From Dictyostelium discoideum (lineage: Eukaryota): a stretch of 64,000 nucleotides of DNA. Below the pieces are notes generated by a model, which worked only from the letters and a program-made list of their open reading frames with translations, was not told the origin of the DNA and searched no databases. Shown here in pieces: positions 6,597-46,914 of the stretch; the first letter of the stretch is position 1; every line of letters starts with the position of its first letter. The translations under genes and the position numbers were made by a program. Location of the stretch: NCBI GenBank assembly GCA_000004695.1, contig CM000151.3, forward strand, positions 6,624,001 through 6,688,000, written 5' to 3'.

Positions 6597-6771
6597 AAAT
6601 TTCAAATTCTTACCCCTTTTATTTTTTTTATTTTTTCATAATATAAACCCACACAAAAATAAATAAATAAATAGATAAAAACAAATAATAATACTACTGT
6701 ATTTTTTTATTTTTTATTTTTTTATTTTTTTTATTTTTTTATTTTTTTTTTTTAAAATTTAATTTTTTTTT

Positions 6772-9251: not shown

Positions 9252-9634
9252 CTTTCTTCTTCCTACATCTATCCAATTAAACGAGTGGAAGTGAAAAATT
9301 TATAAAAAGAGAAAAGTAAAAGGATAGTGAAATAGGGATTTAGAAATTAATTTTTATAATTTTATTTAATTTTATTTTCTCAATTAAACAGAACAAAATA
9401 AAAAAAAAAAAAAAAAAAAAAAAAGTAAAGGTAATGTGATATATAAAACACCCACCACACTAAAAATAAAAAAAACAATTGTTTCAGTTTTTACATGTTT
9501 TTTTTTTTTTTCACACAGATCCAAATTTTTTTTTTTATTCATTGTTTTATTTTATAACATATTGTTGCAACACTGTTGTTTTTGTTTTTGTTTTTTTAAA
9601 TTATAAAAAATTAATACAATAAAAAAAAAAATTA

Positions 9635-10042
9635 ATGATGGAAATTGATAAGAATGTTGAACAATCATCTAATAAAGTTGAATATAATCAACCAAAATCA
9701 CCAATAACTTCAATTTTAGTAAACAACAATAGTAGTAATAATAATAATAATAGTAATAATAAAAATAATAACAATGAGGAAGAATTTGACATATCATCAC
9801 CATTAACATTATCACCAATTGCTAATTGTGGGGCAAGTGGTAGTAATATTGATTCATCAATTGATAATACACCTCACCTATTATCACAAATATCCACTCC
9901 ACCAATATCATCAACTTCATCTATTACATTATTAAATGATAAAAAAAAAGGAATCTATTCAACTTTTTTAGATTTAGATTATTATAATAATACTTATTTA
10001 AAAAATAAACAAAAAATATTACAACCAAAATTAAATCAACAA

Positions 10043-10073
<31 letters not shown>

Positions 10074-10187
10074 CTAAAACATTAACATTTTCATTAGATT
10101 CACAACAACAGCAACAACAACAACCACAACTCCAATCACCTCAATTAATAGATCAACAACAACAACAACAACAACAACAGCAACAGC

Positions 10188-10219
<32 letters not shown>

Positions 10220-10907
10220 ATACCATATCATCAAAGAAAACATCATATATCAATTAGAGATGGTGATGATAATGATAATGAAGTAGATTCATTTAATATT
10301 TTAAGTCAAAATCAATTAATTCATCAAACATTTAATAATCCACAAAATCATCATTACTTTTCATCAACATCACCATCTTTATTGTATCACCACCAACAAC
10401 AAACACAATTAGAACAAAAACCAATTTATTCATCTTCATCTTCATCATCAATTTTATCATCACTATCATCATCAACAATTTCATTTTATAATTCTATTAC
10501 ATCATTATTTCTAACGTTTCCACAAACTATTAGTACAGATCCAATTATAATTAGAGAATACGAAAGATTAAAAATGTTACAAGAACAACAGGTAGGACCA
10601 AGACATACAGAGATTTTATTAAGAAAAGAGGATGGAGTTGGAGGAAGAAAAGCATTGAAAGAAAAGTTTGTTGAAATCTATGAATCCTTTTTCAATGGTG
10701 AAGATCCATCAGAGAACCAACCAATTTTTTGGGAACAATTATTTTTAATTAAAGTTAATATTCCATTCCTTGAAAGATGTATAATCCTAACATCTGAAGA
10801 GAATTTATTAGCTTTAAAACAAAATATTAATAAAATTTTCACTCAATCTTGTTTTTGGTTAAAAGATTCAAATTCTTTAAGATTAACTCATATTATTGAA
10901 GTAAGTA

Positions 10908-16386: not shown

Positions 16387-16459
16387 GCCCGTTTAGCAAA
16401 GTTGGAATTGCGGCAGCCTTCTAAGCTGCAGGTCGTGGGATCGAGACCCACAATGGGTG
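16387..16459 (+). tRNA. tRNA-Arg (anticodon UCU), copy 1
   Basis: Cloverleaf read by eye: acceptor GCCCGTT/AATGGGT (two G-U pairs), A box TAGCAAAGTTGG, D-stem GCAA/TTGC, anticodon stem GCAGC/GCTGC with loop CTTCTAA, T-arm GTGGG-ATCGAGA-CCCAC. An identical copy lies in inverted orientation at 23152..23224. Confidence 0.75.
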
Positions 16460-17903: not shown

Positions 17904-20900
17904 TGGTAGTAATCAAAATCAACCAATGGAATGTCAGAGGTTGGGGCACTGACACCTCCTTCAAAAACAAAACAGACTTTATCAAATCCCAATCCCCCCC
18001 AAACTCATTGGCACTAACCATAGTCAATGAACTCAACGCCGACGCAACACAAGCACACCAGCTATTTCCTGGCTCCATCATTAGCGCAACCAACAGAGGC
18101 AACGGAATAGGAATACTAAACCACAACAACCAAAACATAAAACTCTCACCAATATTCATAATAGAAGGTAGACTAATAATATCAGACATTCTAATAAAAG
18201 ATACCACAACGAGAATCTTGGCCATATACGCCCCGGCCCAACCTGATAAGGGAAAAATACTAGCTTGAACACTAAACAAACACTTGAACAACCAATACCA
18301 CAACCTAACGTCTAACCCTAAAAAAAACATCGACATCATAGCAGGTGACTTCAATTGTTTAGACTTCAATGACAATCACACATCAAATGACGACCAAGGC
18401 AACTTGACAACACAATCCCCAGATGAGATGGCCACAGTAATTGAAGCCATCAGAATTTCAAATAACCTAATGGATATGGACCAACTAAATAAAAGACCCA
18501 CCTTCTCAAGAACGATACACAACACAAACAATAACCTCACAAGAATCTTGGAAAGGAGACTAGACAGAATATACCTTAACAATAGCATAATCAACTACAG
18601 TCAATTATACTTAAGGAACCTAATCCCCCCAAAAATTAACGACATACCTCTATCAGATCACAACTTCCTATCAACCACCTTCACTCTACCCAACATACAG
18701 ACGAACATGCGCAGATGGAGATTAAAAAAATCCTCAATCCTCTCAAGCATAATGCTTAAGAAAATAGACATCCTACTTAACGATTATTCAAGGGAGCTGT
18801 CATCCAACCATAACTCTATTTCCTTCTCTCAACTCAACAGCTTACTGAACAAAATAAAACAACTATACACAGAATTTCAAAAACAAAACGACTACAACAA
18901 TAAGGCAAACATCAAAAATCTAATCTCCCTACTAGAGACAGAATTTAAAGACCAAGCCTTTGCAACCCTTTCAGCAATAAATGAATCTAAAAGAAGAGAA
19001 GAACAACTTAAACAAGAATTGAACAACTATTGCGAAGAAACCTCACTCAAGTACATCTCCGCGAGAATCAAGAAAAGACACAATGATTTCACCATCAACG
19101 CAGTAAAAGATACACAAGGTAGAACAATCAACAAACAGGAATTGATCGAAGAAGAATACGTAAAATATTACTCAAATCTTTATGACTACAAAGAAGATGA
19201 CCCACCATCTCATTATGAAATGTTGGAAAATTGGACAGTGACCAGGGACTCAACATGGGACAACCTTGAAAATGAATTCACATCACAAGAGATCCTAGAA
19301 GTAATAAAACAATTGAACCCACACAAATCTCCAGGCCCAGATGGAATTCCAAACTTATTCTACATAACACACAAAGAAAAACTAGCTCCAATACTGGCCT
19401 CAGCATTCAACGACACTCTAAGAAATCCTCATCTAATTAGCAAAAATTACAAAGAAGGCCTCATTATCACGATACCTAAAAAGGGAGATCCCGAACTAAT
19501 CAAAAACAGAAGACCAATTACACTGGCCAACTGTATATATAAAATCCACTCAAAACTAATAAACAATAGAATAATCCCAATACTAACGAAAGTGATCAAC
19601 CACAATCAAAAAGGTTTCGTACCAGGCAGATTCATTCTCGATAATATCATATCAATTAACGAATTAATCAACTATTGTAATGATAAAAGAATTAACGGAA
19701 TAATTACACTATATGATTTCGAAAAAGCTTTTGACTCGATCTCACACGGTTCAATACTCAGATCACTACAACACATCAACATTCCAACCAATATAATCAA
19801 CCTGATAATGAATCTACTCACCAAATCTGAGGCAAGAATTGAAATTAATGGTAGAACTACTATACCCTTTGAGATCAAAAGAGGAGTTAAACAAGGAGAT
19901 CCACTATCACCCACCCTGTTCGTCCTTGTAATAGAGGCTTTAGCTAGAAAAATTTTACAAGATGACCGAATTACTGGCCTTCCTCTAAACAACAGCAACC
20001 ACAGAGAGAAATTCCAAAGCTTTGCAGACGATTCGGCTTCAATGGTCCCAGACTCTCAACAACTTGAATTAGTACTACAACACTTCAATTCATTTTGCAA
20101 AGCCACTTCCTCAAAACTAAACATCGACAAATCTTCATCAATTCTTATAGGCAACCCAGACAATACCAACCAAAGAATTCCAATATCTACAAATCCAGAA
20201 AGATACTTGGGATACTTCTTCACAGGCAAAGGGATAACAAGAAAAATGCCAGAAATATTAAACACAATAAGATCATCCTTAGTACTATGGAAAACCACTG
20301 ACTCAACAATCAAAACCAAAACCAACATCCTCAAAGCATTCGCACTCTCTAAATTAACCTACTATTCATATGTAGAGAACTTTAAGGAAGAGGAATTAAA
20401 CCAAATCAATAAATTGGTCGAATGGTTTTTATCGGCACCTAACAACAAAAATGCTAGTGGATTTCAAGTTATTAATTTAATGAGAACCAAAAGAGCAAGA
20501 TACCCACTAAATGTAGGGGGCTGGAACATTTGGAATATAGAATTGAGACAACTGGCGCAGAAACTTTGGATCATAAACCAGTTCATCCTAGCACTAGAAA
20601 CCAAACAAACAAACTCATCTCATCACAAAAGCTGGGAATATCAGATCCAAAAAAACAAATTCACATCCAGATACCTAAAAGAAAACTTAGACGAATGGAA
20701 CAAAATAAGAATAAAAAAAGCAATCTTCAACAATAATCTCACATCCATAAAAAACGAAAATGGACAACCACTTTCACTGGCAGAATGGTATACCACAATT
20801 CAAGACCAAAATCCAACCATCCCTAAAACGGAATTCCAATCATCTCTAAACTTAAGAGGCTACAGCTATAATCAACTCTTCAACAACATACTGAAGATAA

Positions 20901-22490: not shown

Positions 22491-22573
22491 TGCAAGAGGC
22501 GAGATTCGAACTCGCGAACCGAATGGATGAGATCTTAAGTCACACGGATTTAACCAGACTTTCCTACCCTTGC
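22491..22573 (-). tRNA. tRNA-Leu (anticodon UAA) with a long variable arm
   Basis: Minus-strand read: GCAAGGG-TA-GGAAAGTCTGGTTAAATCC-G-TGTGA-CTTAAGA-TCTCA-TCCATTCGGTTC-GCGAG-TTCGAAT-CTCGC-CTCTTGC-A. T-arm GCGAG/TTCGAAT/CTCGC, a 12-nt variable arm, and an exB box GGTTCGATTCTC at 22448..22459. Confidence 0.65.
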
Positions 22574-23151: not shown

Positions 23152-23224
23152 CACCCATTGTGGGTCTCGATCCCACGACCTGCAGCTTAGAAGGCTGCCG
23201 CAATTCCAACTTTGCTAAACGGGC
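23152..23224 (-). tRNA. tRNA-Arg (anticodon UCU), copy 2, inverted relative to copy 1
   Basis: Exact reverse complement of 16387..16459 (73/73). The downstream exB box (rc GGTTCGATGTCTG at 23108..23120) is conserved, but the spacer between has diverged. Confidence 0.75.
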
Positions 23225-27957: not shown

Positions 27958-31821
<3,864 letters not shown>

Positions 31822-37154: not shown

Positions 37155-37295
37155 TGTGCGGATTAGCCAAATCTAACATTTTTTAATTTTTTTTTTTAAA
37201 TTTTTCAAATCAAACACTTTTTTTTTTTTTTTTTTTTTTTTTTTTATTTGTTTTTTTTTTTTTATTATTATTTTTTTTTTATTATTTTTCTTTTT

Positions 37296-37862
37296 TCACC
37301 TTTTTCTTTGGTATTGATTTCTTTTTTTTTCAGACCAGAAGTTTAGGCTTTGGCGATAAAATCCAATGAACAGTTCTTTGTTTTTAATTAGAGAATTATC
37401 GATGGTGTCAATAATCTCATCAAGGAAGGACCCATGGGAATTACGTTCTCGGTAGAAATGGTTCTTGATATAGCCAAAGAAACGCTCAATGGGATTCAAC
37501 TCTGGAGAATAGGAAGGAAGAAATATCAATTGAACCGAATATTGATTAAACAATTCAAATAGTGCATTTAAAGCTTCGATACCACCGTGAATTGGAGCAT
37601 TGTCCATTACCAATAATGAACCAGGCTTGCAAAATCCACTTTCCAAAAGTTCTCTAACATATTGAAAGAAGTCTTCAGTATTATTGGTTTTATCACGGAT
37701 TTTATACAAACAATCATCCAAACTGATGGTGAAAAACACATTGTAGGTCTCAGAAATGCTGGTGCTATTGGTAACATAAACCGGCTCTCCAATCGGTCCA
37801 ACAGCTTTAGATCTCCTTAATTCTAATAAAAAACCTTATTAGTTTTAATTATTTATTTTGTA

Positions 37863-37911
<49 letters not shown>

Positions 37912-38458
37912 AAAAAAAATTAATAAATATAATTACCTTATAATGTTAATAGTGGAATTCAGAATAGATGGAAAGAAAGACAATTATTTAATTAAAAATA
38001 TTTTTTAAAAAAAAAAAAAAAAAAATTAGTATAAATATTTATATTCAATCTAAAATAATAAAATATAATACCTCTAGAAGAAAAATAAATTTTTTTCCAA
38101 TCAGTATTGTAAATTATTGTATTAAAATAAAATAATTTTAATAAATTTTCAATTTTGTATTTATTTTCCTAAAAAAAAAAAAAAAAAATTAACAAATAGT
38201 TAGTTATTTAATATATTAAAACTTTTTTACTTACTTGTTTATAGGTTGGAGAGTGGTAATTCCATTTCAATTCTTTGAATATTGAACATATCCTCGATTT
38301 GTTGACCTTTTTATAAAAAATAATTGAGTTGATTTCTGGTCAAACCATATTCACGAGCAGCTCTACTTATATTACCGATTCTAACCCCATATTCTAATGC
38401 ATTGTATATTCTCTCAGTATGCTCAATTAAGTGAGTTAAACTTCTTTTAGGTTTCATT
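37296..38458 (-). mobile_element. Remnant of a Tc1/mariner-like DDE transposase gene (Dictyostelium DDT-type DNA transposon), with introns and frame disruptions
   Basis: C-terminal catalytic region: LLVMDNAPIHGG...LIFLPSYSPELNPIERFFGYIK (DDE signature DNAPIH / ELNPIE), in frame back to about 37845. N-terminal HTH MKPKRSLTHLIEHTERIYNALEYGVRIGNISRAAREYGLTRNQLNYF sits at 38458..38320 on the minus strand. Intron-like GTAAGT...TTTTTAG segments (about 38230..38165 and 37935..37846) and a frame break lie between the two parts. No terminal inverted repeats are recognisable. Confidence 0.6.
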
Positions 38459-38460
38459 AT

Positions 38461-38700
38461 ATTGTTATTACTATTATTACTACTATATTGCTATTGCTAT
38501 CACTATTGTTACTATTATTACTACTATATTGCTATTACTATTATTACTATTACTACTATATTTCTATTGCTATTACTGTTATTACTATTATTACAATTAT
38601 TACAATTATTACAATTATTACTACTATATTTCTATTGCTATTACTATTACCATTACTACTATATAGCTATTGCTATTAATATTTCTATTTCTATTTCTAT
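38461..38700. repeat. Complex minisatellite (about 36-40-bp period; tattactactatattgctattgctat... units)
   Basis: Direct read. It directly abuts the transposase N-terminus. The track ORFs 38462..38761 and 38488..38679 are translation artefacts of this repeat. Confidence 0.85.
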
Positions 38701-38937
38701 TACAATTATAAATATAATTAATTATATTATTATTTTGGTTTTATTAATTATGTTTTTTTAATTGTTTTTATTATTATAAACTGCAAGTGGTTTTTTTATT
38801 TAAAATAAAAAAATGATCATTTTAACCAAAAATGTAGATGTGATGGTTTATTATTATAAAAACTATGGCCAATTGTATTTCATTTTATTTATAGTTGGTT
38901 AAAATAATGAGTGAATTTTTTTTTTTTAACTGTGAAA

Positions 38938-39030
38938 CATTTCCCCCACTTTTTTTTAAATTAAAAAAAGAAAAATAGTTGGAGATATTTTCCCCCACTT
39001 TTTTTTAAATTAAAAAAAGAAAAATAAAAT
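38938..39030. repeat. Direct duplication: tttcccccacttttttttaaattaaaaaaagaaaaata occurs twice
   Basis: Copies of about 38 bp at 38940-38978 and 38989-39027, separated by gttggagatat. Confidence 0.8.
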
Positions 39031-39470
39031 AAAATAAAAATAAAATCTTTTATCAAAACAAAGATAACTTTTTTAATTTTTTTTTTATTTTAAAAATAAT
39101 AATAATAATAATAATAATATTAATAATAATAATAATAATAATAAAAATAAATAAATAAATAAAATTCAATTTATTTTATTTCCAAAAAAATTTTAGTATA
39201 AAATATTTTTATTGTATAGTTTTAAATTTTTAAAATAAAAAAAAAAATATTCATAATAATTAACTTAGAAAGTTTTTTAATATTTTATAGCGAGTTTAAA
39301 CCCTTTTTTTATTTTTTTTTTTTTTTTTTTTTTTTTTTGTTTGACTTAAGTGAGTTTTTTTAATTTTTTTTTTTATGATTAATTTGCTCAAAACGCACTA
39401 TATTTTAATTTTTTTATTTATTTTATATGTTTTTTAAATTATTACTTTATTTTCTTTTTTTTTTTTTTTT

Positions 39471-41132
39471 TTATAAAACAATATTACCATGTTTTTTAGT
39501 TGGATTTGATAATTTTTTATTTTTAAGAATTTCTAAATCTTCACAAATGTATTGACGAGACATTCTTGGTGGGATGATATCATCAATGAAACCTCTACGA
39601 GCAGCTGGTAATGGATTAGCAAATTTATCATTGTAAATTTGTTCTTGTTCTTTGATGTCACCTTTGCCTCTAAAGATGATTTCTACGGCACCTTTTGAAC
39701 CCATGACAGCGATTTGACCGGTTGGCCAAGAGTAATTGGTATCACCACGAAGATGTTTGGATGACATAACATCATAGGCACCACCATAAGCTTTACGAGT
39801 GATAATTGAGATCTTTGGAACGGTAGCTTCAGCGTAAGCATACAATAATTTAGCACCATGTCTAATGATACCATTGTGTTCTTGATTAGTACCTGGAAGG
39901 AAACCTGGAACATCGATGAGAGTTACAATTGGAATATTGAAACAATCACAGAAACGTACAAAACGGGCGGCCTTAACAGAGGCATCAATGTCTAAACAAC
40001 CTGCGAGTTCTTTTGGTTGATTGGCAACGAAACCAACAGTACGACCCTCCATACGAGCATAACCAACGATGATATTCTTGGCAAACTCTGGTTGAATCTC
40101 AAAGAATTCTCCTTCATCAACGATACGTTCAATGACTTCTTTCATATCGTATGGTTTGTTTGGATCGTCTGGAATGATTTGATCCAAGACATCATCTTCA
40201 CGAGATGGTGAATCGAATGCTTCTCTCATGGCTGGTTCATTTGGATTTGATGGGAGGAGAGTGACAAATTCACGAACTCTCTTTAAGGCATCGATATCAT
40301 TGTCAAAAGCAAGATGGGCAACACCAGATTTGGTGGTATGGATTTTAGCACCACCTAAACCCTCTTGAGAGATCTCTTGATTGGTGACAGATTTGACAAC
40401 ATCTGGACCAGTGACAAACAAGTAACTGGTGTCCTTTACCATGAATACGTAATCGGTGATGGCTGGTGAATAGACGGCACCACCAGCACAAGGTCCCATG
40501 ATGACAGAGATTTGAGGAATGACACCACTTGCCATAACATTACGTTGGAAAACTTCAGCATAACCAGCCAATGAAGCGATACCTTCTTGAATACGAGCAC
40601 CACCACTATCGTTTAAACCAATGACTGGTGCACCAACTAACATTGCTTTATCCATGATCTTGCAAATCTTTTCAGCATGTGCTTCAGAGAGTGAACCACC
40701 ATTGACTGTACTATCTTGACTGAATACAAATACCAATTTACCATTGATTGTACCATGACCTGTTACAACACCATCACCTGGTGTCTTTTCAACGTTGAAA
40801 TCAGTACAACGATGGGTTACCAACATATCGTACTCTCTAAATGATCCATCATCCAATAAGAGATCCAATCTTTCACGTGCTAATAATTTACCTTTACCAT
40901 GTTGAACATCAATCTTCTTTACACCACCTCCTAATTGTGCTCTCTCTGTTTCTTCTTGAATTCTACCATTTATTCTTTCAATTGTTGATTCATATTTTAC
41001 TGCTTTGAATGGTTCTTTTGCTGGTGTTGGTTTACCTGTAGCAAAACTTTTAATACCTTGTGATGATACATTTTTACAATTCTTATTCAAAAATTGAATA
41101 GTATTTTTATTTAATAATCTTCTTGATAACAT
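39471..41132 (-). CDS. pccB: Propionyl-CoA carboxylase beta chain (carboxyltransferase), mitochondrial precursor, 553 aa
   Basis: Full-length collinear similarity to PCCB (…[123 protein letters not shown]…). The N-terminus is basic (MLSRRLLNK). Confidence 0.9.
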
Positions 41133-41249: not shown

Positions 41250-41749
41250 AAAAAAAAAAAAAAAAAAATTAAATTTTTAAAATTTCAAATTTATAAAAAA
41301 AAAAATAAAAAAATAAAAAATAAAAAAAAAAAAATTATTTTATTATTTGATCACTTCATCTTCATCATATTTTTTTTTTTTTTTTTTTTAACAAAAAATA
41401 TTTAAATATTTATAATTTCTTTGTTTTGTTTAATATAGAAGAGTAATCAATTGATAGTGATGAAATTAGAAGTGGGGGTGGAATGAAAATGGACCAATTA
41501 AATTAAAATATTTCAATATAAAGAATTTTTATTTTATTTTATTTTTTTTTTCACTTGTTTATATAAATTTCAAATAAAAATAAATCAAAAAAATAAAAAA
41601 AATCATTTTAATCTCCAAAAGTTTATAATATTTTTTTTTTTTCCATTTCCTTTTTTTTTTTCCTTTTTTTGGAGGGTATGTTACTATTGATAAATATCAT
41701 ATAATTATGTTATCTAACTATTGTTCTTAGTAAGTATCGAAATTGGAGA

Positions 41750-42021: not shown

Positions 42022-42639
42022 ATGAAAAATCTATTTATATATACATTATTATTATTTTTATTTTTATTTTCATTAATAAAAGTAAAAAGTCAATCGTTAT
42101 CTGGTTTTCCAATTTATTGGTAGGTTTATTTATTTTATTTTATTTATTTTTATTCTAAAAAACAATTATTTATTATTTTTCTACTTAACAGGCCATGTTT
42201 TCCGTCTTGTGAGCCTTATGGATATTGTGATGATTATAATGGAAAATGTGTGTGTGAAAAATATTCGACTGGTTTTGATTGTAAAAAAAATTTTAATTTT
42301 ACATCCATTACACCTGCTTTTGTAACTGGTATAGTTTATTTGAATGGTGATTTTTCAAATATTTTTGATCGCAATTTAACAATTGATATAGGTAGTGGAC
42401 AATGTAATATTACCAATAAAAATGAAACAGTTATAGAATGTATAGTTGGACCAGGTGAAGGTTCTCATAGTTTTGTCATTAGAAATGATTATTTAGTGCC
42501 ATTTGTAACTACCTTTGAATATAAATATTTTACTTATCCACTTGGTTGTTCATCTCATGGTGCTTGTAATAAATATAATGGATTATGTGATTGTAATATT
42601 GGAACTTATGGTAATCAATGTTACCAAGAAGATTATTAA
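42022..42639 (+). CDS. Secreted EGF-like + IPT/TIG domain protein, 2 exons, about 181 aa
   Basis: Exon 1 42022..42119 (signal peptide; donor GTAGGT), exon 2 42192..42639 (acceptor aacag). Cys-rich EGF-like module (CFPSCEPYGYCDDYNGKCVCEKYSTGFDC), IPT-like fold (ITPAFVTGIVYLNGDFSNIF...CNITNKNETVIECIVGPGEGSHSFVI), second EGF-like module (CSSHGACNKYNGLCDCNIGTYGNQC). Confidence 0.6.
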
Positions 42640-42699
42640 ATAAAAATAAAAAAATAAATAAATAAATAAATTAAATAGATATAACTATTTTACATAAAA

Positions 42700-44188
42700 A
42701 GTTCAATTCAATATACAAAAGGTTTAAATTGTGACCTATTAAATGCATCAATATCATCAGTTGAAACACCAACAATTGATGGTGGTGTCGTTAAATTATT
42801 AGGTGATTTTAAACATATTTTTAGTATTCTGGGAAATATTGAAATTTCAATTGGTAATTCAATTTGTAATCAAATTCCTATGGAAAATACACAATTCATA
42901 ATTACATGTCAATAGAACCTGGTTTTTCTAATAAAACAATTACTTTATCTGATGGAAATGGAGCAACATTATCATATAAAGGATTTTATTACCGTTGGCC
43001 ATGTCCCGTTCCTTGTAATGATTTTAATGGAAAATGTGTGTGAAAAATATTTAACTGGTTCTGATTGTAAAACTCTAACATCAGTTACACCAACTTTTGT
43101 AAGTGGGGGAAACGTTTATTTAATTGGCGATTTTTCAAATGTTTTTAATCTCAATTTAACTATTCATTTAGGTGATCAACAATGTAGAATTAACAATATT
43201 AATCAAACAGTTATAGAATGTGTTATTGGGCCAGGTGAAGGTTTTCATAATGTTACAATTTCAATCAATGTTATATTAACATTTAAAACTATAGATACTC
43301 CCTTTGAATACAAATATTTTACTTGTCCACTTAGTTGTTCATCACATGGTACTTGTAACAAATATTATGGATCATGTGATTGTAATATTGGAACTTATGG
43401 TAATCAATGTCAATTTTTTGAATGTCCATTAAATTGTTCAAATCCAAATGGTGCATGTGATAGTAAAACTGGTATTTGCAACTGTGATGATAAACATGGT
43501 GGAGAATCATGTAATTTTATTTTATGTCCATTACATTGTTAAACTCCAAATGGTGTATGTGATGGTAAAACTGGTACTTGTAATTGTGATTATAAACACG
43601 GTGGTGAATCATGTGATTTTACTTTATGTCCATTTAATTGTTCAACACCAAATGGTATATGTGATGGTAAAACTGGTATTTGTAAATGTAATAATCCATA
43701 CACAGGAGAAGCTTGTGATTTAATTATTAAATGTAAACAAGAATGTTCTTTAAAATATGGAAATTGTGATACTCATACACAAGATTGTATATGTGATACT
43801 CAAACCAGAGGATTATCATGTGAAGAATCAAGATTATTAATCGAATCAATAGAATTAACAATTTAGATGGTGGTACAAATACAATAGTTGGATATTTTGG
43901 TAGAACAACATCATTATTAACAATTAAAATAGGTGCTTCACAATGTACAAATATTAAGGTATTTAATGATACAACATTAAATTGTTTCATTGGTCCAGGA
44001 GAAGGAACTCATAATGTAACGATTACAGATGATGATCTTTCATTTACTGCTATTAATAAGTTCCAATACATTGGAGAAAAAATCAAAAAAATCAAAGATA
44101 TCAGGTGGTACAATTGTTTGAATAACTGCTGGTTGTGTTGTTGGTCTATCAGTACTTGGAGCAGGTAGTTATTAAAAACTTAATCATT

Positions 44189-44190
<2 letters not shown>
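42700..44190 (+). pseudogene. Degenerated paralog array: IPT/TIG + tenascin-type EGF repeats + C-terminal TM segment, disrupted by frameshifts and nonsense codons
   Basis: The same domain logic as 42022..42639 is repeated and extended (4 EGF repeats CPLNCSNPNGACDSKTGICNCDDKHGGESC…, 3 IPT units, hydrophobic tail GGTIV.ITAGCVVGLSVLGAGSY). Lesions: TAG at 42913-15; a 2-bp loss in a (GT)n run creating TGA at 43040-42 (tgtgtgtga versus tgtgtgtgtga in the intact gene); TCA>TAA at 43540-42 within CPLHC*TPNG; frame shifts near 43860 and 44110. Confidence 0.65.
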
Positions 44191-44242
<52 letters not shown>

Positions 44243-45752
44243 TAGATAAAAAAAAGAATTCATTCAACTTGTAATTGCCACCAAAATATTTAAATAATAA
44301 TAATTTAAAATAAAAAAAAAAATAAATAAAAAAATACAAAATTAAAATCTTCTTTTTTCTTTTTTCTTTTTTATTGTATTTTAAATAAAGTATAACTACC
44401 ATAATATTCATATTTTAATATTATTTAAAAAAACATTTTTAATAATTAAAATATCTTACCAAATGATTGTCTTTTATCACCAATTTTTATAATTTCCAAT
44501 TAATTAATTAATGGGGTGGAGGGGTGGGGGTGGGAGGGGTAAAAAAATTGATATTTACATAAATCATAATTGTACATGACAATTTTTTAAAATAATTAAT
44601 TTGATTGATTCATCATAAAAAAAAATTAAATAAAAAATTAAAAAAGAAAAAATTAAATCGGCAATTTTAACAACAACAAGAACATTTCGATAAGATCATA
44701 CATTAATTGCAATCACACACAAACACCCAAAACTTAATTACGCACGTACACCACGACACACTAACATAAAAAATTATTAAGAGAAAAAAAAAAAATAAAA
44801 AAAAAAATAAAAATTAAATAAGTAGAAAATAAATAAAAAATTAAATCACTATTTCAAACATAGCATTTTATTAAGTTACAATTTCTGAATAACAATCACA
44901 CACTTTCTCACTCTCTACCAGTTTTGTTCTATTTAACAAATAAATACATTGTGGTGGGTGTGTGAGAGAGAGTGAGGTGATAGTGTGTGACAGTGTGTGT
45001 GTGAGTGGTATATATTAACCTAATTAAAAACTTTTTTCTACACATCAAACAATATTAAAAGGTGGTAAAAATCACTAAATAAAATTAAAAACCATTTAAT
45101 TTTTATCTCGAACAACAACTCCACCACACATATATAGATAAAATACATATAGGTCTACCCCTTTCTTTTTTTTATTTTTTATTATTTTTTTTTTTTTAGT
45201 TTTTTTTTTATATAAAAAAAAAAAAACAACATATAACTGATGATAAAATTTTAACCTTGTTTAATATTATTTTTAAAAATTTTTTTATTTTTTTTTATTC
45301 ATTATTTATTTTTAAAATATTACTTTAAATTAATATTAAAACAATTATTATAGCTTGTGTATTTTATCTGTGCATAAAATTAAATATTAATAAATTAAAA
45401 TTACAATTGTGTGTAATTTTTTAAAAAAATTAAAATAATTATTTTCAATAGCTAATAATAACAATTCCTTTTATAATTTTAATTTTAAAAATAAAATAAA
45501 ATAATTTTAATTTGAATTATTTTCCAATTAAAAATAAATTATTTAATATATATATATATATATAATTTTATTTTAATAAAAAAGCAATAGAAAGTGATAT
45601 AGTTGTATATCCTAATTATTTTTAAAAAAAAAATTATATTTTTAAAAAATTAATATATTAAAAAAAAAAAAAAAAATAACAAAAATTAATAAAAATAAAT
45701 AATTACTTAAAAGTTATATATACTTAATTATTTTTTTAAAAAAAGAATAAAA

Positions 45753-46914
45753 ATGGGAAGCCAATTTAGTGTTTTAAATAGAAAATGGTTAATTGAAAGA
45801 AGTATTATGATTGAAAAAAGGAAAAGAAGATCAAATAAATTAATAAAAATTTTAATGATGGGTAATGAAAATTCAGCTAAAAGTACATTTGCTAAAAAAG
45901 TTAAATCAATTTATCAAAGTGATAAAATTGAAAATTCCGATGCCAATTCAATTTTACCATATATTAAATTATATTTATCTAATAGTTTCAAAGATGTTAT
46001 AAAATTTATTCAACAACATCCACAATCACCAGATACAAAACCAATGGTTTCAACACAATTAGGAATAATAGCATGGGATAAATTATCAAGTTTTAATTAT
46101 ATTCCATTTAATTTTAAACCAACAAAAGAATTGGCAAAATATATTTATGATATTTGTCATGATCCACTTTTTAAAAGTTATATTTATCCAATAATTTCTT
46201 CAAAAAGAGAAGATGCATTTTAGTATGTTTTATTATAATAATAATTTTTTTAATTTTTTTTTTAAATATAGTTATTAATTATTTAAATTTAATTTTATTA
46301 ATAGTTTAATTGAAAATTGTAAAAGAATGTCAAATGATGATTATATACCAAATGATGAAGATATAATTAGATGTTCAAAAAATAATCAAAGTGGAGTATT
46401 TGATACTAAATTAGAGATTGGAAAAAGTGAATTTGTATTTGTTGATACAGGTAATCAAAAATGTGATAGAAAGAAATGGGTTCATCAATTTGAAGATGTT
46501 GATATAATATTATTTTTTTTGGCTTTAGATGAATTTGATTTACCACCTGATGAAATTAAATCACAATCACAATCAGTTCATGATTGTTATAATAAATTAA
46601 ATGAAAATATATTAGTATTTGATGAAATTGTAAATAATCACTTCTTTTCAAATACACCCGTAATTGTTTTATTTAATAAAAAAGAACAATTAATTGAAAA
46701 ATTAAAAACAACAACTTTTTCACAACATTATCCAGATTATCAAAGTAATTCAAATAATCCAAACGACATTTTTTCTTTTATTTCAAATCAATTTAAATTA
46801 AGAGATCATTTTCCATTAAACAAACGTTTATTTATTCATTCTTTTAATTCTTCAGATACTAATCAAATCGATTTCTTTCAATATGTTAAAAAAATATTAG
46901 AAGATACAATTTAA
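45753..46914 (+). CDS. Heterotrimeric G-protein alpha subunit, divergent, 2 exons, about 359 aa
   Basis: Exons 45753..46222 (donor GTATGT) and 46305..46914 (acceptor taatag). MGSQFS (myristoylation-type N-terminus). Switch/G-box regions DEDIIRCSKNNQSGVFDTKLEIG, DTGNQKCDRKKWVHQFEDVDIILFFLALDEFD, VLFNKKEQL. The P-loop reads IKILMMGNENSAKST rather than the usual GAGESGKST. Confidence 0.75.

Follow-up and report, generated by a model that had tools for sequence, protein, structure and literature searches.

A GC-enriched island in the intergenic region 5′ of gpaK, the Dictyostelium discoideum gene for G-alpha-11, is probably the upstream cis-regulatory module and core promoter of that gene, extending over approximately 44510–45210 and carrying G-box/CAE-type sites. 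Positions are those of the window, the whole 64,000 nt stretch of D. discoideum AX4 chromosome 2 that we analysed, and are converted to chromosome 2 coordinates by adding 6,624,000. A regulatory element had been among the possibilities raised by an earlier sequence-only reading of this DNA, and it gained support from syntenic conservation, from a cluster of GBF-type heptamers, from a TATA-like box and poly-T tracts situated just downstream, and from the developmental expression of gpaK.

The coordinates of the neighbouring genes place the island in a 1.58 kb spacer 5′ of gpaK, where its G-run and its CA- and GT-rich blocks lie 750–1240 bp before the ATG. The genes surrounding it are as follows.

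39471–41132, minus strand: pccB-like carboxyltransferase gene
42250–44170, plus strand: broken EGF/TIG-like gene
45753–46914, plus strand: gpaK (G-alpha-11, DDB_G0276343), exons 45753–46222 and 46305–46914, spliced translation of 359 aa
from 47139, minus strand: P-type ATPase gene

The gpaK protein is 99% identical to protein P0001, the cluster of which includes XP_643181, annotated as G-protein subunit alpha 11. No open reading frame of at least 50 aa was found in 44412–45752. The island had been described as compositionally atypical within intergenic DNA of 80% AT; the atypical composition was confirmed and the surroundings turned out to be even more AT-rich, with a GC content of 16.2% for the spacer (44176–45752), 26.4% for the island (44500–45010) and 11.4% for the remaining spacer.

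An origin as a fragment of a G-rich repeat associated with rDNA or telomeres, also suggested from the sequence, was not supported by copy number: the pieces of the island are single-copy within the 64 kb window, and the G-run, for which copy number was assessed genome-wide, is present once in the list of Saad et al. 2019 (PMC6511855). The position of the locus likewise gave no support to a telomeric, rDNA or dispersed repeat: it lies at 6.67 Mb of the 8.48 Mb chromosome 2, with approximately 1.8 Mb between it and the closer end, and shows synteny in four species.

The region between pccB and gpaK looks like a hotspot of structural variation. The EGF/TIG-like gene is split across several reading frames (ORFs 42250–42639, 42952–43542 and 43448–43723) and may be a pseudogene. 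It was found solely in AX4 and in one isolate of D. cf. discoideum (L001), and is missing from three sister species; its place is occupied by a transposase gene (DDE_Tnp_4; L007 1–883) in a second D. cf. discoideum isolate (L007), and nothing was found at this position in the other species examined. The pccB-like gene, which is divergently transcribed, shares the same intergenic region in three of the four sister species and in D. purpureum, but not in L001. Assignment of the island to gpaK rests on AX4 and L001, in which an insertion of approximately 3 kb separates the island from pccB, and we infer on this basis that gpaK is the gene it regulates.

On the far side of pccB, a segment of approximately 2.2 kb between an AMP-binding-enzyme gene and the pccB 3′ end (37155–39403) has no counterpart in any sister-species locus and is probably another lineage-specific insertion; it includes very low-complexity sequence at 38462–38761. 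Elsewhere in the window, two equally scoring tRNA-Arg(TCT) genes, approximately 6.7 kb apart, are inverted relative to each other (16387–16459, plus strand; 23152–23224, minus strand), one of them adjoined by a tRNA-Leu(TAA) gene (22491–22573, minus strand), and (CAA)n tracts of up to 92 nt at 28339–28430, 29744–29833 and 10037–10220 are presumably coding poly-Q/N runs typical of Dictyostelium genes.

Conservation and G-box content of the gpaK upstream region

Orthologous gpaK loci were compared from the two D. cf. discoideum isolates (L001 and L007), D. dimigraforme (L005), D. citrinum (L004), D. firmibasis (L003), D. purpureum (L002) and P. violaceum (L006). The intergenic region was searched by BLASTN using sub-queries with dust masking, as an unmasked query of the whole region was swamped by poly-A/T matches. 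In D. cf. discoideum, D. dimigraforme, D. citrinum and D. firmibasis alike, the island aligned in the corresponding position 5′ of gpaK. The homologous upstream unit starts between 44174 and 44292 in L007, D. dimigraforme and D. citrinum and at approximately 44830 in D. firmibasis, and sequence farther upstream is rearranged between genomes. The features of the spacer, all on the plus strand, are listed below.

44513–44539: G-run GGGGTGGAGGGGTGGGGGTGGGAGGGG, 1240 bp before the gpaK ATG, which reads both as a canonical G4 motif and as successive G-box (KGKGKGK) heptamers
44685–44701: GATA-like motif TTTCGATAAGATCATAC, bordering the CA block on the left and shared by all five aligned species
44705–44762: CA-rich block with the CAE/G-box-complement heptamers ACACACA and ACACCCA (44715–44729) and conserved TACGCACGTACAC (44739–44751)
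44843–44935: conserved block A, 77% invariant columns and no indels across five species, holding TCACACACTTTCTCACTCTCT
44949–45006: GT-rich block, comprising the right arm of an inverted repeat (44964–44990) together with GGTGGGTGTGT and TGTGTGTGT, both runs of G-box heptamers
45007–45166: conserved block B, 80% invariant columns, with CCACCACACA (45121–45130, G-box complement), ATATATAGATAAAATA (45130–45145) and CTACCCCTTTC
45163–45210 (−587 to −544): sense-strand poly-T tracts, in runs of at least 8 T
45233–45460: stretch of moderate conservation 3′ of the predicted start, with 65% of columns invariant (24% in 45461–45752)

Both conserved blocks exceed the third-codon positions of gpaK in their proportion of invariant columns (77% and 80% against 69%), ordinary spacer reaching 24–31%, and block B is 86–97% identical to its counterparts in sister species by BLAST. 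Judged from this alignment, blocks A and B clearly appear to be under purifying selection. The conservation profile would thus make the pieces that had drawn attention in the sequence-only reading the fast-evolving parts of the module, and their flanks the parts held by selection. G-boxes make up only a minor part of these two blocks, the most conserved of the module, so that selection there may act on sites for other factors or on an RNA product. Neither block could be aligned in D. purpureum, where the CA-rich composition alone persists.

The CA-rich and GT-rich blocks were both found as described, the former with CACACACAAACACCCAAAAC at 44714–44733 and CACGACACAC at 44752–44761, and the latter at 44954–45005. 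The CA block is present in all four sister species, in truncated form in D. firmibasis, and the wider CA interval (44661–44762) has 52% invariant columns. The motif TACGCACGTACAC, with an ACGT core, is a non-GT motif of the island that is kept in all five aligned species, and both it and TTTCGATAAGATCATAC are candidate sites for other transcription factors. The GT block is GT-rich in every aligned species but variable in sequence and length, with 45% invariant columns and 58 nt spread across 81 alignment columns; in D. firmibasis it includes a 35 nt uninterrupted GT run. On this alignment the GT block behaves like a microsatellite.

The response element of GBF is (T/G)G(T/G)G(T/G)G(T/G) (PMC2257962). 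The prestalk gene cprB supplied the G-rich motifs on which GbfA was isolated, and the induction of prestalk and prespore genes by cAMP requires GBF (PMC6598861). We scanned both strands for KGKGKGK and merged the footprints; this heptamer is degenerate and is matched by any GT microsatellite, and it gave 43 merged footprints in the 64 kb window, seven of them in 44513–45130. The island is the densest 500 bp window for this heptamer in the 64 kb, with 54 covered bases against 30 for the runner-up. GBF sites are arranged as pairs of half-sites that lie close together and may have either orientation. The island heptamers show this arrangement, 44513–44519 being paired with 44521–44533, 44715–44721 with 44723–44729, and 44953–44963 with 44994–45002. 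Isolated G-box/CAE-like heptamer runs occur elsewhere in the window (e.g. TGGGGGTGG, GGTGTGTGG and ACCCACACA), at 41468–41493, 588–596, 6647–6655, 9448–9456 and 19317–19325; none of those outside the island clusters comparably within the 64 kb.

The gpaK upstream region also holds the densest heptamer window in each of five Dictyostelium orthologous loci of 12–13 kb, and thus in five of six orthologous loci, with P. violaceum as the exception. In D. purpureum the upstream sequence is unalignable and its sites are all on one strand, with 62 covered bases against 21 and a 170 bp run of CACCC-type sites from −669 to −503 followed by a TATA-like sequence and poly-T. The top two windows of P. violaceum are likewise in the spacer upstream of gpaK, but farther away, at −2253 (the densest) and −1395.

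Expression values for gpaK were taken from the supplement of Kin et al. 2018, which draws on the data of Parikh et al. 2010.

Time course: 0 h, 0; 4 h, 0.06; 8 h, 6.5; 12 h, 7.5; 16 h, 11.3; 20 h, 12.2; 24 h, 14.9
Cell types: prespore, 1.5; prestalk, 14.6; vegetative, 0

The gene is off in growth, on at 8 h and approximately 10-fold enriched in prestalk cells. This profile is post-aggregative and prestalk-enriched, as in GBF-class genes, and it is in genes of this class that G-boxes were first defined. We infer that GBF or a GBF-like factor binds the island; a literature search found no ChIP, gel-shift or mutant expression reports for DDB_G0276343.

Predicted core promoter and start site, and possible non-coding transcription

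The sense-strand poly-T tracts lie directly 3′ of block B, in which ATATATAGATAAAATA forms a TATA-like box, and the position of box and tracts is conserved in sister species. Only one other sense run of at least 8 T, at 45288–45296 (−465 to −457), was found within 1.7 kb upstream of gpaK. In Dictyostelium, the poly-T tract has a TATA box embedded upstream, and its 3′ end lies approximately 2 bp before the transcription start (Chang et al. 2012, PMC3371697). Applying this rule to the tracts, we predict the start of gpaK transcription near 45212, approximately 540 bp before the ATG, which would place the GT and CA blocks 200–500 bp upstream of the start. The order of a TATA-like box (45130–45145) and then sense poly-T (45163–45210) is that of the Dictyostelium core promoter of Chang et al. 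2012, from which the island differs in that its box departs from the TATAAA(A/T)(A/T) consensus and precedes the end of the last tract by approximately 65 nt instead of 29 nt. It differs also in the implied leader of approximately 540 nt, which is unusually long against an average Dictyostelium 5′ UTR of less than 100 nt (Saad et al. 2019, PMC6511855). Logan contigs that contain gpaK exon 1 still carry the intron and are interrupted in A/T runs; they probably derive from genomic DNA and are uninformative on the start site.

Downstream of the predicted start, the moderately conserved stretch 45233–45460, located 300–520 nt before the ATG, may represent a 5′ leader, an upstream transcript or additional control sequence. 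It contains the splice-acceptor-like sequences TTATTATAG/C and TTTTCAATAG/C, and such sites in a conserved stretch hint at an upstream non-coding exon or leader.

Transcription of the conserved sequence itself is the main live alternative to a promoter module, albeit an unlikely one. Blocks A and B (44843–44935 and 45007–45166), possibly with sequence up to 45460, would then encode an unannotated small RNA, lncRNA or non-coding 5′ exon, and the GT and CA blocks would be part of the transcript or of its own promoter. Conservation of the blocks above the level of synonymous sites, the sharp end of this conservation at the T-run, the contrast between 45233–45460 (65% invariant) and the 290 nt adjoining the ATG (only 24%), and a predicted start 540 nt from the ATG would all suit such a transcript. 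Against it, the region has no ORF of at least 50 aa, and the blocks are unalignable in D. purpureum, where just the CA-rich composition is left. Rfam at gathering thresholds returned only three tRNAs across the whole window, all of them elsewhere, as did ARAGORN (three distant tRNAs only), and a search of 44300–45760 at E≤5 added only two miRNA models, at 18–21 bits against thresholds of 90–100, which we regard as chance matches. No DUSE, Class I RNA or box C/D motifs were seen on reading the sequence by eye. In the portions of the lncRNA supplement of Rosengarten 2016 and the miRNA supplement of Liao 2018 that were searched, no entry falls at the island coordinates.

Comparative folding pointed the same way, with weak RNAalifold energies, positive (that is, penalising) covariation terms and either one compensatory pair or none. 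The term was +2.4 for the hairpin region around the GT block, with one compensatory pair out of 25 and many broken pairs, and +2.4 for block B, with none of 29 pairs compensatory; the power of this comparison is low in block B because the block barely varies. The structured non-coding RNA that had been proposed for the island is thus disfavoured by the Rfam searches, by covariation and by D. purpureum, which is without the inverted repeat. In an extended form of the transcript reading, blocks A and B and 45233–45460 would be an unannotated conserved non-coding transcript or leader exon that starts approximately 540 nt before the ATG and regulates gpaK in prestalk differentiation, with the recently expanded G-quadruplex on the sense strand as a species-specific modulator; we consider this quite unlikely.

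The G-run, the GT block and DNA structure

The G-run, G-rich on the sense strand of gpaK, was correctly described as having at least four G-tracts, and the 30-mer quoted for it lies at 44511–44540, one base away from the 44512–44541 first reported. A G-quadruplex prediction was borne out: the G4 core (44513–44539) scores 2.92–3.0 in G4Hunter and matches the G3+N1–7 x4 expression. Neither strand of the 64 kb contains another such motif, and no other stretch reaches a G4Hunter score of 1.75, the maximum in the GT block being 1.0. The G-run has already been catalogued in silico by Saad et al. 2019 (PMC6511855), who list it at chr2:6668513–6668539 (+) among 23 "very G-rich" motifs (Table S1a). It is outside the 14 sequences that they characterised in vitro and beyond their 1 kb promoter definition, and its lineage specificity and length polymorphism are additions of the present comparison.

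Across five species the G-run has no invariant column (0/27) and is polymorphic in length. Versions capable of forming a G-quadruplex were found in AX4 and D. cf. discoideum L001 only; the counterpart has three tracts in D. cf. discoideum L007 (GGGGTGGGAGGGGG) and a single G-tract in D. citrinum and D. firmibasis (GGGGTCGA) and in D. dimigraforme (GGGTT), so that G4 capacity is not conserved among these relatives. The G-run resembles a tandem expansion of a GGGGTGG(A/G) unit and, on the aligned sequences, can be traced to a young local expansion of the single GGGGT seed found in sister species. This local expansion speaks against a repeat fragment as its origin.

Little probability attaches to a role of the G-run as a G-quadruplex, in DNA or RNA, that modulates gpaK transcription or local chromatin or replication. 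At least four tracts of at least 4 G with 1 nt loops and a G4Hunter score of 2.9–3.0 make the structure plausible, the G-run is one of merely 23 such motifs genome-wide, D. cf. discoideum L001 likewise carries a variant with G4 potential, and G4 enrichment in Dictyostelium promoters has been reported together with ligand effects on five G4-bearing genes (PMC6511855). Against these stand its lack of conservation, with fewer tracts in the other isolate and species and 0/27 invariant columns, its distance of 1240 bp from the ATG and approximately 700 bp from the predicted start, and its absence from the 14 biophysically tested sequences (PMC6511855).

It is also improbable that neutral low-complexity or microsatellite DNA, functionless in itself and present in the promoter by chance, is all that the G-run and the GT run represent. 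Their variation in length and sequence among close relatives is what such DNA would display, as is the resemblance of the G-run to a tandem expansion, but GT/CA richness is kept at this place in all five Dictyostelium species, including the unalignable D. purpureum, and, given intergenic DNA that is approximately 88% AT, a neutral microsatellite would not be expected to persist in this way.

Two complementarities had been proposed within the island. The supposed complementarity of the CA block (44690–44770) to the GT block proved compositional, amounting to a 15 nt (CA)n-type match that was equalled by 79 of 1000 shuffles, and was rejected. In contrast, TCACACACTTTCTCACTCTCTACC, present exactly as given at 44896–44919, does pair with the GT block: the left arm TCACACACTTTCTCACTCTCT (44896–44916) matches the right arm (44964–44990) at 21 of 24 positions with one 3 nt gap, which none of 1000 shuffles equalled. 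Folding gave a DNA hairpin at 44880–45015 (z = −3.3), but only a weak structure for the 331 nt RNA (z = −2.2 on the plus strand and −0.8 on the minus strand). The D. purpureum region is CA-rich on one strand only, and the inverted repeat is therefore not a conserved property. That the CA/GT inverted repeat is itself the functional unit, as a hairpin or cruciform or as a structured RNA or pre-miRNA, is extremely improbable despite the pairing and the DNA fold, since any CA-rich tract pairs with any GT-rich tract, the stem is merely 10 + 8 bp around a loop of approximately 47 nt, the RNAalifold result is unfavourable, the right arm has been lost to an uninterrupted GT run in D. firmibasis, and the single-strand arrangement in D. 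purpureum makes an inverted repeat impossible there.

Proposed architecture of the gpaK promoter

In the promoter module that we favour, the GT-rich block, the CA-rich block and the seed of the G-run would be G-box/CAE-type sites on either strand, the kind that the zinc-finger factor GBF (GbfA) binds when it turns on post-aggregative, cAMP-inducible genes. These sites would be interleaved with the two strongly conserved blocks, presumably bound by further factors, and the module would end in the TATA-like box and the sense poly-T that may mark a start approximately 540 bp before the ATG. The GT block would be a microsatellite-like array of sites, and recent expansion of one distal G-box would have produced the G4-capable G-run, which is polymorphic in length; for both, the exact sequence may be free to drift while G-box density is maintained.

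Such an arrangement resembles the GBF modules of cprB/CP2, cotC/SP60, lagC and sigN in its GT/G-rich or CA/C-rich (T/G)G(T/G)G(T/G)G(T/G) sites, in their closely spaced pairs of either orientation, in their location a few hundred bp before a TATA/poly-T core promoter, and in a downstream gene that is off in growth, on at approximately 8 h and prestalk-enriched. It differs from these modules in its unusual distance from the ATG (−750 to −1240), in that its most conserved parts are not G-boxes, and in the expansion of one distal site to a 27 nt run capable of a four-quartet G4.

Apart from the points that follow, the island would be an ordinary example of known Dictyostelium promoter architecture. 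The alleles of the G-run, with 5, 4, 3 and 1 G-tracts, form a natural series with which the in vivo importance of a promoter-distal G4 could be addressed, in a genome poor in G4s that has only 23 very G-rich motifs of this kind. If our reading is correct, gpaK, an uncharacterised G-alpha gene, gains a defined and phylogenetically footprinted control region that offers testable G-box blocks and two unexplained ultra-conserved blocks.
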